Below, in pieces: positions 1 through 6,318 of a DNA stretch of 25,110 nucleotides. The position numbers and the translations under genes were made by a program. The notes beneath the pieces are model-generated. The model was not told where the DNA came from, made no database searches, and saw only the letters and a program-made list of their open reading frames with translations. Source of the DNA: a virus (Duplodnaviria; Caudoviricetes); IMG/VR virus record IMGVR_UViG_3300032243_001428, positions 1-25,110 of that record. One strand, given 5' to 3'. Each line of letters opens with the position of its first letter. Positions within the stretch are counted from its first letter, which is position 1.

Positions 1-687
1 AAAACACCCGATGCTCTAATGAACGGGCAGGGCATGGTTGAAGTTATACGTAGCTGTTGTCCCAATATCAAAAATGCCTGGGCCATGCCGGCTGTGGATG
101 TAGATGCTATTTTTATTGCCATTAGATTGGCCAGCTACGGCAGTGACATGGATATCGTTACAAACTGCGCCGACTGCGGGGAGAAGAACGAGCATACTAT
201 CAGTTTAAATCATTTGTTGGATAGTTTTAAAATTGCAGAATACAGTAAACCTGCATTTTTTGATGAATTGAAATTCAAGTTTAAACCACAGACTTATAAA
301 AACATCAGTGACATGGGCATAATCACCTATGAAGAACAGCGTTTGGTTGACAGTATCATTCGTAACGAATCACTCAGTGATGAAGAAAAGGCCGCACGGT
401 TTGCAGAAAGTTTCAGCAAACTCAAACAGCTAAACATAGATTCCATTGCTGTTTGTATTGAAAGCATTACCCCGGAAGGTCAGGAACCGGTCACCGACAA
501 GAAGTTCATTGCTGAATATTTGGAAAATTGCAGTAGAGAATCATATCAAGCCATCAAAGACAAGATTGATGAAATCATAAAAGAAAACAAACTAAAACCC
601 ATGACCCTGACCTGTGCAGAATGTCAAAAGGAATATGAATCAAGTCTGGAGTTTAATCAATCAAATTTTTTCGCCAGCGGCTTTTGA
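1..687 (+). CDS. gp26: T4 gp26-like baseplate hub/tail assembly protein, 5'-truncated by the window
   Basis: Frame is open from base 1 (KTPDALMNGQG...). It has the family-like AIRLASYG segment and two CxxC pairs (CADC, CAEC), and ends in ...NFFASGF*. It is followed by a small gp51-like ORF, as in T4-like cyanophages. Confidence 0.7.
   Translation, partial: KTPDALMNGQGMVEVIRSCCPNIKNAWAMPAVDVDAIFIAIRLASYGSDMDIVTNCADCGEKNEHTISLNHLLDSFKIAEYSKPAFFDELKFKFKPQTYKNISDMGIITYEEQRLVDSIIRNESLSDEEKAARFAESFSKLKQLNIDSIAVCIESITPEGQEPVTDKKFIAEYLENCSRESYQAIKDKIDEIIKENKLKPMTLTCAECQKEYESSLEFNQSNFFASGF
663..672 (+). other. Candidate -1 programmed ribosomal frameshift site
   Basis: A_AAT_TTT_TTC contains two in-register X_XXY_YYZ heptamers (663-669 and 666-672) in the gp26-like frame. 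The -1 frame reads FFRQRLLTLDNEQ... into the next ORF. Confidence 0.65.
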
Positions 688-902
688 CCCTGGACAATGA
701 GCAAGTCATTGCCTGGCTAGACAGCCTGGAAAAAGAGTCAAAAGCCTTAAAACGAGAAATCATGCAGTTGTGTTGGTACATGAGAGGCAGTATCTCATAC
801 ACCGAAGCCATGGAACTTGCGCCATCAGAGCGAGAAATCATAGTCAAGTTAATCAAAGAGAACTTAGAAACTGCTAAGAAATCAGGAATGCCATTCTTTT
901 AA
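684..902 (+). CDS. Small gp51-like tail/baseplate assembly chaperone; probably the -1 frameshift extension of the upstream gene
   Basis: 72-aa ORF with LCWYMRGSISYTEAMELAPSEREII, resembling the short helical second-chaperone ORFs of contractile tails. It has only a TTG start with no obvious SD, and the frame is open back to 657. Confidence 0.6.
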   Translation: MTLDNEQVIAWLDSLEKESKALKREIMQLCWYMRGSISYTEAMELAPSEREIIVKLIKENLETAKKSGMPFF

Positions 903-927
903 GATCTCTAACGAGATCTGTTGTTTC
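902..927 (+). terminator. Possible intrinsic terminator of the + strand genes, or the 3' hairpin of the - strand RNA
   Basis: Perfect 7-bp stem AGATCTC-TAAC-GAGATCT at the gp51-like stop, followed by only a weak T-rich tail (GTTGTTT). Confidence 0.3.
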
Positions 928-1326
928 GCTTGCCAGCTCACAACTGTATTTCTTCTAAGAGCGAAGCGATTATAGTTTCATCCAGATTGTTTGGTCACAC
1001 TTTGCCCACACAGGGCAAAGATAGCTTCATCCGAGTCGACTCAGTCACTTAGCGTTACAACAATTACAGAGGCGGTTGTCCGATACCTCGAGTTGCGTCT
1101 TTTACAACGGCGGTCAAATACACATACGCTAACACACATATTTGACGTGCTCAATCACTTGAGCGTCTTTTTAGCCTTAAATTCCTATTCAAACAATCAA
1201 ACTGCGGCAATTAGCAGTCTACATCCTTCTCGGGTAGTGATTGAGTACTCTTAACGGCGAGAGATTTACGTCCCTGTGACCCGAGGTCCAGTTTTCGTGT
1301 ACACAAGATATTGGCCTGTGTGAGCC
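902..1326 (-). ncRNA. Putative large structured non-coding RNA of unknown family
   Basis: This is the only long intergenic region in the window. Inverted repeats lie at 902-919, 1000-1020, 1069-1089, 1113-1146, 1149-1164, 1201-1218, 1219-1237, 1248-1263 and ~1274-1291. On the - strand the 1113-1146 stem extends through G-U pairs and 1149-1164 closes a GUGA (GNRA) tetraloop. Long-range complements are 1049-1055/1126-1132 and 985-993/1190-1198. The ends are approximate. Confidence 0.7.
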
Positions 1327-1758
1327 TTAACCGTTTAATTTTTTTATGTGGGAGCCATGGACACGGACACTGATTTGTCCGTTGTAGTAATCTTGGGATT
1401 CTAGCACTTTGTGTGTAAATTGTTCTCTTGCTTCGATATAACTACATTCGGCTTTAGAGCGACAGTAATACATGATTTCTCTTGTAAACTGATCTGCGCC
1501 TAATGCCGCAACATCTTTATTCAATTCTTCGTTTGAGCCATAATATGTTTGCCAGTCAGAATCAATTTTACTTCTGATCTTTTTCTTTTTCTTTGTGCCG
1601 TTTTTGAGTTTTACTACTCGATATGTTGTCTTAGAGAATTTTGCTAGTTTTTTACCTATGTATTTGCGCCCTGATACTTTATTCGTGATGACATAGACGA
1701 AGCCTACACAGTCTTCGGGAAGTTCTAAAACCGGGGAGTCTTGATAAGTCCATGTCAT
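1327..1758 (-). CDS. Stand-alone GIY-YIG family (Seg-like) endonuclease
   Basis: Motifs GFVYVITN...KYIGKK, SDWQTYYGS, a catalytic-type Glu (YIEAREQ) and Asn (YYNG). It carries a Lys-rich insertion and is 143 aa with no C-terminal DNA-binding domains. Confidence 0.85.
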   Translation of the reverse strand: MTWTYQDSPVLELPEDCVGFVYVITNKVSGRKYIGKKLAKFSKTTYRVVKLKNGTKKKKKIRSKIDSDWQTYYGSNEELNKDVAALGADQFTREIMYYCRSKAECSYIEAREQFTHKVLESQDYYNGQISVRVHGSHIKKLNG

Positions 1759-1764
1759 GCATTA

Positions 1765-1772
1765 TAATTATG
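1765..1772 (-). promoter_or_regulatory. Late-promoter-like element CATAATTA upstream of the GIY-YIG gene
   Basis: Variant of the T4 late TATAAATA box ending 6 nt before the ATG; no SD present. Confidence 0.35.
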
Positions 1773-1777
1773 ATCTT

Positions 1778-2782
1778 TTACCATGAAGTTGAATATTCTT
1801 GATTTACTATGTTTTTGTTACATTTTTGTTGGCATTCTTGCCATTTGAAAGCCTTAAGGTCAGTTTCCCAAAATGGGTCTGCGACTGCATCTGTTAAGGT
1901 CCTGTGATGCAGATTGAATTGGTCGGCTAGAGTCTGCCATTCGGTGTTGTGTGTGTAGCGATTTGCCACCCAACAACAAGGAAACAGCCTGCCCCTGGCG
2001 TCTATATAAATGCCTTTGTTACCAATCTCACACAAGGGCTTGACGTTGTTTTGTACTGTGACATCTCTATATAATTGTAGGTTAGTTTGTGATATTTTAC
2101 TGGTTCTATTGGTAAAGTCGGTAACGTCCCGTTCAAATCTATGACTTGTGCTGACAAATCGAACGCTGGGTTGTAATGGATCGTTGTCGCCATAGCTGGG
2201 GTACACGCTACCAAACTTGGTACTGCGAGTCAGTTGGAATCGATCAACACCCAAGGACTTTGCTATTGTTTTCATACGATCTAAATGATCTTCATTAAAC
2301 TTAAATGCAATAGCGACCCACACAATGGTACATGAGCTTGCGACTCTTAATGTCCGTAAACCTGCGACGATACTGTCGTGATCACTGTTTACACGGTACA
2401 AGTTGTTGCTAGGGTTGTCGTAACCGTCAATGCTGAAATGCACACTATCATTGTAGTCTAATAGTTTACCCAACTGTTGCCACCACGATGTCTTTTTATG
2501 ACTACCATTTGTGATGATCACAATCTCAACGGCCTTGATGCTTTTGATATACGCAACAACATCTATTAGATCATGTGCATATATAGGATCGCCATCGTCA
2601 CCGCAGAATGTAATTTTCTCCACACGAGATCTGATGAACTCGGGTGTAAAGTTACGTTTGAAAAATTCCAAATCCAACTCAGTGTTGACCAGACCATCGG
2701 GAACTTCTTGACGGGCACAGCGAGGACAGCGCAAGGTACACTTGCTACTGATTTCTATGTGAAAGTGCCAGGTTGCTAACAT
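1778..2782 (-). CDS. Radical SAM protein with C-terminal SPASM/Twitch-like Fe-S domain
   Basis: CTLRCPRC (CxxxCxxC), FCGDDGDP, ITNGS, FSIDG, and C-terminal C...GRLFPCCW...CQQKC. The start is moved to the ATG at 2782 (MLATWHF), which overlaps the upstream stop; the ORF track start is 2803. Confidence 0.88.
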   Translation of the reverse strand: MLATWHFHIEISSKCTLRCPRCARQEVPDGLVNTELDLEFFKRNFTPEFIRSRVEKITFCGDDGDPIYAHDLIDVVAYIKSIKAVEIVIITNGSHKKTSWWQQLGKLLDYNDSVHFSIDGYDNPSNNLYRVNSDHDSIVAGLRTLRVASSCTIVWVAIAFKFNEDHLDRMKTIAKSLGVDRFQLTRSTKFGSVYPSYGDNDPLQPSVRFVSTSHRFERDVTDFTNRTSKISQTNLQLYRDVTVQNNVKPLCEIGNKGIYIDARGRLFPCCWVANRYTHNTEWQTLADQFNLHHRTLTDAVADPFWETDLKAFKWQECQQKCNKNIVNQEYSTSW

Positions 2783-3651
2783 AGTGGTAGGTCTCGTTGC
2801 CATTGTCCTGTATAGTTAGACATGTTATTGACTGTGCTACAGGTTTCTCGACAGGTGGGATTACAGGAGTCTGTGTTCCAAGTTGCTGTTATAGCATCAA
2901 AGTCATTGATGGTATTTTCGCCATAGCCCAACCAACAACAGGGATGGTACACACCCTTTGCACTGAGATATATGCTTTGATCCCGATTTCTAAAGCAATC
3001 AATGGGACCTTGTTCTACAACAGGTCGAGTCCAACCTCGGGGCGGTTGGAGCCAGTCAACGGTGGATTCGCGCTTGCTGACCTTGGCACGAAACCAACCA
3101 AAGCCCATGTCTCGGGCCAGTTGTTCACATGCTTCAACTTGATGTTCGTTGTGTTCATACACTAACATGTCCCATTGTGCATTGCCTCCAGCACGAATAA
3201 ATGTTTCTGCATTACGCATCACCCTGTCCCAACTAACGTTTCGGCGATACATGTGATTGGTATCTTCCAAGCCGTCAATGCTGAATACCACATAGTCAGT
3301 GGGCCGGTGCAGTACATTGGCTAAATCAGTCCACCAGAGGGAATTTTGTAGTCCACCGTTGGTGTTCATGCCCAATACAATGCTACTGTTAACTGATCTA
3401 AAATAAGAAAAGATATCAAGTGATTCACTGTTGGCAGCCGGATCTCCGTAGTTACCGCACATGAACATTTTATCTAGTCTGTAGATAATTCGTTCGGGTA
3501 ACAGACGCTTGATATCGGCCACAGTCAAACGATGTTGTATATCTTGATTGAAAGAGGAATCTGTTTCGCGGGCACAGCTAGGACAGGCCGCTTGACATAC
3601 ATCAGTGGGCTCTATGTGCAGTACTCTAACTGTTTCAAATAATTTCGACAT
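2776..3651 (-). CDS. Radical SAM protein with C-terminal SPASM/Twitch-like Fe-S domain
   Basis: CQAACPSC, MCGNYGDP, NTNGG, FSIDG, and C-terminal C...GVYHPCCW...CRETC. The start overlaps the end of gp46 by 17 nt. Confidence 0.88.
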   Translation of the reverse strand: MSKLFETVRVLHIEPTDVCQAACPSCARETDSSFNQDIQHRLTVADIKRLLPERIIYRLDKMFMCGNYGDPAANSESLDIFSYFRSVNSSIVLGMNTNGGLQNSLWWTDLANVLHRPTDYVVFSIDGLEDTNHMYRRNVSWDRVMRNAETFIRAGGNAQWDMLVYEHNEHQVEACEQLARDMGFGWFRAKVSKRESTVDWLQPPRGWTRPVVEQGPIDCFRNRDQSIYLSAKGVYHPCCWLGYGENTINDFDAITATWNTDSCNPTCRETCSTVNNMSNYTGQWQRDLPLC

Positions 3652-5442: not shown

Positions 5443-6318
5443 TTATGCGGGACTTCCGCAATAGTTCATGCAGAATAAATGCACCGAATCAGGATTATCA
5501 AGTTGGGACGATATATCCATCAGTTGGCTTGGATCATTGTTTGCGTGACGATGATTAAAGAAACAGCACATGCTCACAGTACCATTGGCATTTACATACA
5601 AGCTGGGCAACTCCAAATGAATACAATCTTTTTTATCAACTCGATTTTTTACAAATGTCAACGGATTGTACTCGGTATTCCGACTCCACGGCTGTATATC
5701 AACTGGTGCGCCTGTTCTATAGTCCCGAGCACTAAAGTTTGTACGCACACGCCGATACAATTCAAACTTTTTAAATCCCATTTTTTGACTAAGACGTAAA
5801 CAGTCTTTGATCTGATGTTCGTTGTGTGCAAACGGTATAAACTGCCAAGTGGCATGTCCGCCTGCTTCGATAAATGCTGTTGCATTGCGAATGATCTTTT
5901 GCCAATCTGTGCCTTGTCTGTAGGTATGATGTGTATCTTCCAGGCCGTCCAGGCAGAACCAAACATTATGCTGGTGACCTGCCAACAGCTTGGCATAGTC
6001 TTGCCACCATTCTTCATTGCGCAGGCTACCGTTGGTTTTTACTATCACAGTTGGTATGCGTTGTTTAGCAATCTCAGTTAGTTCTACGATGTTTGCGGCA
6101 GCAATGGCATCACCAAACGTGCCACAAAACTCAACAGTTTCGACATTAGGTACCGATTTTAGAATTTCTACTAGCCTCTCAGTTTTCAAGTCTTCAACAA
6201 CTAATCCATCTGCCAGCCCGTATCCGTTGTTGTTTCTTGGACAACCGGGACACCAGGCATTGCACTTGCTAGAGGCTTCGATTTGTAGCCATTTAACTGT
6301 TGATAAGTCTATCATCAA
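5443..6318 (-). CDS. Radical SAM protein with C-terminal SPASM/Twitch-like Fe-S domain
   Basis: CNAWCPGC, FCGTFGDA, KTNGS, FCLDG, and C-terminal C...GTVSMCCF...CMNYC. The start overlaps the gp47 stop (ATGA). Confidence 0.88.
   Translation of the reverse strand: MMIDLSTVKWLQIEASSKCNAWCPGCPRNNNGYGLADGLVVEDLKTERLVEILKSVPNVETVEFCGTFGDAIAAANIVELTEIAKQRIPTVIVKTNGSLRNEEWWQDYAKLLAGHQHNVWFCLDGLEDTHHTYRQGTDWQKIIRNATAFIEAGGHATWQFIPFAHNEHQIKDCLRLSQKMGFKKFELYRRVRTNFSARDYRTGAPVDIQPWSRNTEYNPLTFVKNRVDKKDCIHLELPSLYVNANGTVSMCCFFNHRHANNDPSQLMDISSQLDNPDSVHLFCMNYCGSPA

Follow-up and report, generated by a model that had tools for sequence, protein, structure and literature searches.

A conserved pseudoknotted RNA of large lake phages with co-changing repeat words, a candidate R-loop replication origin also found in Polynucleobacter islands

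A gap of 424 nt in the genome of a large uncultured lake phage was found to be a real, conserved structured element. The window, by which we mean the whole stretch of 25,110 nucleotides that was analyzed, is a piece of a T4-like phage with a gp26-like hub gene, gp46/47, a gp55-type sigma factor and baseplate genes, and the gap extends from the stop of a plus-strand ORF to the stop of a minus-strand nuclease gene (Table 1). As judged by covariation, the phage RNA of the minus strand was shown to have a conserved double-pseudoknotted fold, behind which lie two direct repeats whose short words change together. From the sequence evidence we give an even chance to the reading that the folded RNA and the adjoining DNA site form a transcription-activated, ColE1-like R-loop replication origin, common to the phage and a likely satellite.

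Table 1. Coordinates of the element's parts and of its neighbours in the window
Feature	Position	Strand	Remarks
Convergent neighbour, 72-aa ORF	684..902	+	follows gp26-like gene (1-687); borders the element, lies outside it
Tail of three hairpins	902..970	-	GCTTCGC 961-967; GA-GC..GC-GA hairpin 920-944; terminal hairpin 902-919; predicted displaced-strand ssDNA signals
Repeat copy 2	975..998	-	GTGAC box 998-994, ATCT, word GGATGAA 983-977; predicted DNA target
8-bp hairpin	1000..1020	-	between the two repeat copies; kept by all types; 1/8 pairs with two-sided changes, i.e. little covariation
Repeat copy 1	1024..1048	-	GTGAC box 1048-1044, ACTC, word GGATGAA 1032-1026, two wobble-tolerant bases; predicted RNA anchor
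Conserved core	1049..1111	-	most conserved sequence of the element; holds pseudoknot 2
Pseudoknot 1	loop 1126-1132 with 1049-1055	-	7/7 pairs with two-sided changes; 97.9% paired; mutual information z 13-16
Pseudoknot 2	1104-1108 / about 1074-1078, crossing nested 1092-1096 / 1057-1061 and GAGG/CCUC	-	covariation
Long G-U-rich stem	1113..1146	-	8 bp plus 7 in-register pairs; 13/13 pairs with two-sided changes
Hairpin, 6 bp, GUGA (GNRA) loop	1149..1164	-	5/6 pairs with two-sided changes; 78% paired
5′ RNA domain, Rfam Polynucleobacter-1 (RF01718)	1191..1326	-	105 bits; compensated helices
Stand-alone SegE-like GIY-YIG nuclease domain	1327..1758	-	143 aa; Lys-rich beta-hairpin insert; PF19835, E 7e-34; phrog_447
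Late-promoter-like motif CATAATTA	1765..1772	-	just upstream of GIY-YIG start; predicted transcript start

Extent, family and fold of the element

The gap is by far the largest in the window, as the preliminary description had claimed, with a runner-up of 129 nt among the 15 gaps separating main ORFs. The stems which that description placed on the minus strand were all recovered (two of 8 bp, one of 6 bp, and the 7-bp terminal hairpin of the tail), and its report that tRNA and tmRNA are absent was borne out by search. The G-U-rich extension of the 1113-1146 stem is real as well, although it comprises seven pairs with six G-U where six with five had been counted. When folded as a single sequence the gap did not exceed shuffled sequences beyond chance, with z values of -1.5 on the minus strand and -2.2 on the plus strand, and the case for structure therefore rests on homologs.

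A covariance-model scan of Rfam produced a strong match of the 5′ domain to Polynucleobacter-1 over the full model (positions 1-141; 105.3 bits against a gathering threshold of 37 bits), so that the family, which had been left without a name, is a known one. Among other Rfam families there was just a chance match to SCARNA7 at 16 bits. The Rfam model spans one third of the element, with the pseudoknotted core, the repeats and the DNA tail all outside it. The table of a 2010 survey (Weinberg et al. 2010, PMC2864571) enters the motif as a probable RNA and probable cis-regulator with 16 representatives, and the accessible text of that survey states no function and no phage or island context for it. 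A literature search found the motif name nowhere beyond this survey; among the papers it covered, with those under subscription outside its range, DUF6641 (the family of a gene beside the RNA in islands, described below) was not named anywhere, and, with preprint supplements also outside its range, no account of the 3′ extension, the repeats or the islands was found.

Conservation was assessed on an alignment of positions 990-1190 in 27 sequences, in which 90.9% of the cells were paired and 34 of 48 pairs had two-sided changes, for a structure that was drawn from the same families and hence leans towards them. None of 500 shuffles reached this result, and slid structures paired 37-45%. Mutual information in 97 sequences of the window's own type (type A, below) recovered helices over the whole length, including two pseudoknots which lie outside the Rfam model. 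The helices of pseudoknot 2 were 98.5%, 93.3% and 100% paired in the 27 sequences, with two-sided changes at 3, 4 and 1 pairs, respectively. In three helices G-U outnumbered C-A by 199:12, 152:0 and 63:5 among the 97 sequences, a large excess which points to RNA of the minus strand. Homologs thus support what had been proposed from the window alone, a large structured minus-strand RNA of a T4-like phage that is kept downstream of a GIY-YIG gene. The proposal that the element is RNA throughout held for the front part, by its G-U bias, whereas the last ~75 nt (902-970) resemble single-stranded DNA hairpins; and an account of the element as structured RNA, while correct, had overlooked the two co-changing direct repeats.

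Phage loci and integrase islands

Viral loci were collected by way of the upstream protein (80 loci, 70 with at least 700 nt downstream), and the conserved core was present downstream of the protein gene in 66 of these 70. The four core-less loci comprised one with the Rfam domain (L079), two of a third type (L014 and L060) and one with nothing (L072). Among loci found by the RNA pattern, 64 of 72 informative cases had the GIY-YIG gene no more than 900 nt upstream and 7 more had it at about 1.05-1.3 kb, where an inserted ORF separates gene from RNA. Three phage types were distinguished, A (window-like), B (L004) and C (L014), with different 5′ domains and a common 3′ layout, and types B and C gave no Rfam match. 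The scaffolds of L004, L014 and L060 stand directly after the GIY-YIG stop and share the repeat module and the tail; in the type B fold 32 of 85 predicted pairs were compensated. In six loci (L002, L003, L022, L027, L028 and L032) tandem TATAG-type units form an AT-rich insertion behind the CCGCC motif of the core and lengthen one loop by 15-50 nt. A pattern scan of a genome collection returned 22 matches, of which 15 were chance matches in unrelated sequence and 7 were real elements on MAG contigs. No DNA match to the element was obtained in the collection of isolate phages searched, nor any blastn match among 72,556 plasmids. Genes downstream of the element vary and are often convergent.

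The upstream protein is, as modelled, a bare GIY-YIG catalytic domain. Its model had a pLDDT of 85.6 and aligned to the I-TevI catalytic domain with a Z of 8.2 (rmsd 2.6, 83 aligned), and residues G19, Y22, Y33, G35, E109 and N126 were invariant in 40 sequences. Foldseek returned no match at E 0.001, a PDB sequence search returned none below 0.028, and a single-sequence structure model was poor. The label 'NAD synthetase' carried by phrog_447 is a misannotation for this fold. While the gene is a constant neighbour in the phage clade and absent from islands, distant homologs occur in isolates (499 records), and the four inspected all leave no space for the RNA.

Three near-complete T4-like genomes of 337-347 kb each carry one copy of the element, 7-11 kb from the main divergent strand switch and co-oriented with 72-75% of coding DNA. 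All three encode a family B polymerase and a 5′-3′ exonuclease; in none of them was RVT_1 (PF00078) found, with positive controls, or the RNase H family PF00075. The late-promoter-like motif of the window has counterparts of the form TAA(C/T/G)TA within 45 nt of the GIY-YIG start in 54 of 68 phage loci versus 4 of 68 control windows, and exact TAAATA was seen at that place in 0 of 68. TAAATA, which resembles the T4 late promoter (PMC5259590), precedes 56 of 339, 57 of 326 and 64 of 347 ORFs in the three genomes versus 1-3 inside genes. A sigma-70 consensus scan gave 3 sites where 2.6 were expected, which is chance level. Elsewhere in the window, a run of T was noted at 660-690 where the gp26-like ORF overlaps the next one, and three radical-SAM-like ORFs (1778-3651 and 5443-6318; two were scanned and matched PF04055) stand among the gp55, gp47, gp46 and GIY-YIG genes, in a slot which carries other cargo in relatives.

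RF01718 was also detected above its cut-off in bacteria, namely in 17 of 151 genomes sampled in the genus Polynucleobacter (that of genome G100) and in 2 of 151 from the family. As regards gene content, in 11 of 11 island regions examined the RNA formed part of a module whose other members are a divergent DUF6641 gene, a small tyrosine recombinase and a gp44-like clamp loader (phrog_168, E 8e-17), plus two unknown proteins. An integrase was present in 10 of the 11, and tRNA-end repeats in several, for example G177 and G180, the island of the latter being about 10 kb. With integrase and att repeats, and with no structural genes recognised among the core genes scanned, the islands are likely a family of phage satellites. 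In 21 of 21, TAAATA stands 32-66 nt upstream of the island RNA. No GIY-YIG match was obtained in the 17 island loci tested or among island core clusters, and since islands carry the RNA without this gene the nuclease is not obligatory; the link between RNA and GIY-YIG gene that had been drawn earlier holds in phages, but the element also occurs without the gene. No Rep, helicase or primase was recognised among the island core genes scanned. The two core proteins (275 aa and 244 aa), together with alternative-slot ORFs, received no assignment from Atlas and family scans; both could be initiators or packaging factors.

Repeat words, hairpin tail and the proposed origin

Behind the core, two copies of the layout box-N-A(CTC|TCT)-word flank a hairpin, with the words 49 nt apart in the window and the copies 47-65 nt apart across elements. 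Using a pattern which fixed the shape of the word and left identity between the copies free, the two 7-nt words, which vary at four positions, were the same in all of the 147 non-redundant phage elements; two elements were left out as pattern mismatches, one of which, L088, has words that are identical although they fall outside the pattern. A tree of 97 elements built with the words masked required at least 36 word changes, and among those switches there was no discordant state. Nine words occurred among the phage elements, and L014/L060 and L088 add further variants. The island loci numbered 101, of which 49 were pattern mismatches and 9 duplicates; in the 43 kept, words were identical in 37, and the 7 kinds seen in islands were none of those seen in phages. 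The six non-identical island elements comprised four with a single transition inside the word, three in the forward wobble direction and one in reverse, and two which differed otherwise.

At positions +7 and +8, mismatches between the copies ran in one direction. The forward combinations (G in copy 1 with A in copy 2, or T in copy 1 with C in copy 2) were found 109 and 30 times in phages versus 2 and 1 in reverse, which by word class amounted to 12 versus 2 and 7 versus 1, and in islands they were found 23 and 10 times versus 0 and 0. Such a one-way bias is what wobble pairing of RNA copy 1 with the complement of copy 2 permits. Positions 3 and 4 of the GTGAC box were likewise forward (7 and 20 versus 0 in reverse), while its first base ran in the reverse direction by 15:1, positions -6 to -1 failed to fit pairing, and CTC in copy 1 versus TCT in copy 2 is fixed. 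Wobble inside the word was seen in 0 of 147 phage elements, a stringency beyond the demands of simple hybridisation and a hint that a protein or reciprocal pairing is involved. No complement of the 7-nt word was found in cis, either at a constant place or by mutual information, and no residue of the GIY-YIG protein covaried with the word. Folding that is blind to pseudoknots predicted copy 1 to be partly paired within the RNA. Some simpler interpretations of the repeats were discarded. A K-turn or box C/D motif and a stop codon for ribosome bypass were both rejected by eye, as variants (L005, L019 and island words) lose the GA pairs and the stop, respectively; for tandem promoters, the box-word pair was not repeated elsewhere in 3 genomes.

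The tail differs in character from the front. In 140 elements the terminal loop read cGNAg in 78, cGNNAg in 22 and the reverse complement in 3, and G-U to C-A counts of 5:1 and 4:22 left the tail with almost no G-U. Island tails had GNA triloops in just 11 of 43 by the same strict test. The GNA triloop is a stable DNA loop (PMC10085684), and we infer that the tail may act as the non-template strand in single-stranded form, so that the front of the element would be RNA and its rear DNA.

Words that are identical yet free, combined with a one-way wobble, have their simplest explanation in an upstream RNA copy which pairs with the template at the downstream copy, and such pairing of RNA copy 1 with the DNA template at copy 2 probably takes place. 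In the proposed origin, RNA polymerase with the phage gp55-type sigma would start from the TAA(A/C/T)TA motif, a scaffold of about 290 nt would fold so as to present copy 1, and as the polymerase passed copy 2 a hybrid of about 9 bp, together with the GTGAC box, would form between copy 1 and the template and keep the duplex open. The displaced strand could then fold into GNA-loop hairpins on which helicase or primase would load, and a nuclease (the phage 5′-3′ exonuclease/RNase H-like protein, host RNase H or the GIY-YIG protein) would free a 3′-OH for the phage polymerase. With the arrival of the phage late sigma, integrase islands in the host genus would replicate by the same module.

This origin reading is favoured by the clamp loader in islands whose scanned core genes include no recognised Rep, helicase or primase, by the single copy near the strand switch in three genomes with a family B polymerase and a 5′-3′ exonuclease, by the DNA-type tail loops with nearly no G-U, and by the precedents of ColE1 and T4 oriF/oriG. 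Other observations weigh against it. Fourfold-site skew tracked gene strand only, without change at the element in 3 of 3 genomes, and so gave no origin signal. The promoter motif is of late type, whereas the R-loop origins of T4 use middle promoters and are off late. The lack of wobble inside phage words, the misfit at -6 to -1, the reversed first base of the box, the partial pairing of copy 1 in the pseudoknot-blind fold and the low share of GNA triloops in island tails also disfavour it, as does the possible initiator or packaging role of the two island core proteins. Contigs from six RNA-labelled runs weigh on the same side, being of thin cover, mostly from relatives, without ends or strand, and with DNA as a possible source; a few span the gene into the 5′ part of the RNA (for example X4 record 14 at 1260-1618 and X7 record 8 at 1235-1485), and joints skipping from copy 1 to copy 2 were not seen among them, cover there being too thin to reveal such joints.

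A bolder version, which we put forward tentatively and regard as doubtful, is a programmable DNA-opening RNA, in which a double-pseudoknot scaffold would present a 7-9 nt guide that invades beside a fixed ATCT and primes replication without an initiator protein. It would be common to uncultured ~340-kb T4-like lake phages and to an undescribed family of Polynucleobacter satellites, in which the late sigma of the helper would set it off, and a changed guide would retarget the opening. If true, RNA anchoring on DNA by a freely changeable short word would amount to a compact initiator-free origin or R-loop tool. The analysis offers a testable function for an orphan RNA motif of 2010, the known extent of which is tripled. 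It also names a candidate origin in one clade of uncultured jumbo phages from lakes, and the likely satellite family points to Polynucleobacter as a host. Natural compensatory word variants already outline the classic ColE1 rescue experiment.

Known systems and rival explanations

The ColE1 RNA anchors itself on the template by pairing a run of rG with a run of dC, and helicase and primase are loaded onto the strand that this displaces (PMC4412123). The element resembles RNA II of ColE1 in that a long folded transcript has an upstream segment predicted to pair with the downstream template (PMC4412123, PMC5043065, PMC4555960) and, by analogy, in a displaced strand predicted to expose loading signals. 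It differs from RNA II in its anchor, a mixed and free word of 7-9 nt instead of an rG/dC run, in the lack of a plasmid sequence match, and in having a phage late-type promoter and a phage or island as carrier. The 5′ third belongs to a known orphan family, and the element as a whole may, on this likeness, work as RNA II does. Plasmids that carry T4 oriF or oriG are replicated in infected cells, and strand switches are found close to several of the T4 origins (PMC3016281). The likeness to them would consist in a T4-like phage, a predicted R-loop made by transcription, the vicinity of a strand switch and use by a passenger replicon. As described in the accessible part of PMC3016281, oriF and oriG comprise about 100 bp with a middle promoter and a sequence-independent unwinding element, without a structured RNA or repeat. 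The element by contrast has a conserved fold of ~300 nt, a late-type motif TAA(A/C/T/G)TA and a strongly conserved downstream sequence, and judged from the upstream motif and the downstream conservation it is not an origin of the T4 oriF type.

Because of the late-type promoter and the coupling of T4 terminase to gp55, packaging initiation was considered the main rival. The self-anchored R-loop would here mark a pac-like or concatemer-processing site, at which the DNA, opened by late transcription, would receive its first cut from terminase or the GIY-YIG protein; islands would carry the site so as to travel in helper capsids. The promoter in 21 of 21 islands and its variant in 54 of 68 phage loci agree with this, as do the one copy per genome and the skew without signal; satellites, moreover, need a packaging signal no less than an origin. 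T4 terminase gp17 interacts with the late sigma gp55, and extracts deficient in gp55 package about 100-fold less (PMC3012670). The same paper, in its accessible part, places the preferred T4 pac in gene 16 with no structured RNA needed; in addition, the sole recognisable phage-like island protein, the clamp loader, is a replication factor, and DNA hairpins behind an RNA-DNA hybrid fit the ColE1 layout, for which reasons we consider packaging unlikely.

The remaining rivals assign the words to other partners. In OMEGA- or TIGR-like RNA-guided nucleases, RNA and nuclease gene are obligately linked, and a variable guide matches a target with a fixed adjacent motif. The RNA might in this sense be scaffold and guide of the neighbouring GIY-YIG protein, with ATCT as the target-adjacent motif and the 7-9 nt word as seed. 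Such a role would suit the tight linkage in phages, counted from either gene or RNA, the bare catalytic domain, and the fixed CTC/TCT difference with a strict proximal seed, which recalls the self/non-self marking of RNA-guided systems. The word is indeed variable and preceded by fixed ATCT at copy 2 and ACTC at copy 1, but the sole evident target lies in cis, 49 nt away inside the element. Obligate linkage also fails, with RNA in islands that lack the nuclease, isolate homologs that leave no room for RNA (4 of 4 inspected) and unrelated ORFs that may separate gene and RNA; we therefore find a guide improbable. Little probability also attaches to words acting as homology points for a template jump or strand exchange, as when a polymerase hops the hairpin or a recombinase uses the words as its overlap. 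Such a role would suit the identity without internal wobble in 147 of 147, the word length, 7 nt being common for overlaps, and the tyrosine recombinases of the islands; yet the flanks do not form inverted arms, the wobble bias runs one way, RVT_1 was found in 0 of 3 genomes, and the spacing of 49-72 nt is short and variable. Template RNAs of the retron or DRT kind come with a linked reverse transcriptase, for which the three near-complete genomes yielded no PF00078 match. A free or cis-regulatory RNA whose repeats are twin binding sites of one protein would accord with the 2010 table entry (PMC2864571) and with the twofold box-N-word layout, which could bind a dimer. Protein sites are normally degenerate, whereas here at least 36 word switches left no discordant state and no covarying GIY-YIG residue, and downstream genes vary and are often convergent, so that we give twin sites scant credence.

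With phage satellites, both PICI-like ones and islands transduced by jumbo phages (PMC12595487), the Polynucleobacter islands have in common tRNA-site integration, direct repeats, a tyrosine integrase and no recognised structural genes. From these satellites they differ in a core of DUF6641, RNA, small recombinase, two unknown proteins and clamp loader, with no recognised primase/Rep or AlpA. The jumbo-phage-borne islands of PMC12595487 are of another kind.

At DUF6641 loci that did not match, the slot behind TAAATA was filled by other modules, except that L369 proved to be a diverged form with concordant words. Three of these loci (L342, L347 and L374; reverse strand, about 550-950 nt upstream of the DUF6641 gene) hold a second type of structured RNA without an Rfam match, which sits behind TAAATA and an unknown ORF of ~110-130 aa and has its own short direct repeat around a hairpin, followed by the same tail. 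In four others (L373, L381, L384 and L392; reverse strand, 130-400 nt upstream of the DUF6641 gene) TAAATA is followed by an array of short AGTTGC/GCAACT repeats and then by an ORF of ~150 aa without Pfam or PHROG match, an arrangement which resembles an iteron-type replacement of the RNA. Repeated palindromic sites, TGTCGTTTTAAACGACA or TGTCCTTTTAAAGGACA, were observed several kb apart in L284, L286 and other island regions and are possibly targets of the small tyrosine recombinase. What looks like an insertion of foreign sequence interrupts the island RNA of L321 downstream of the 5′ domain.
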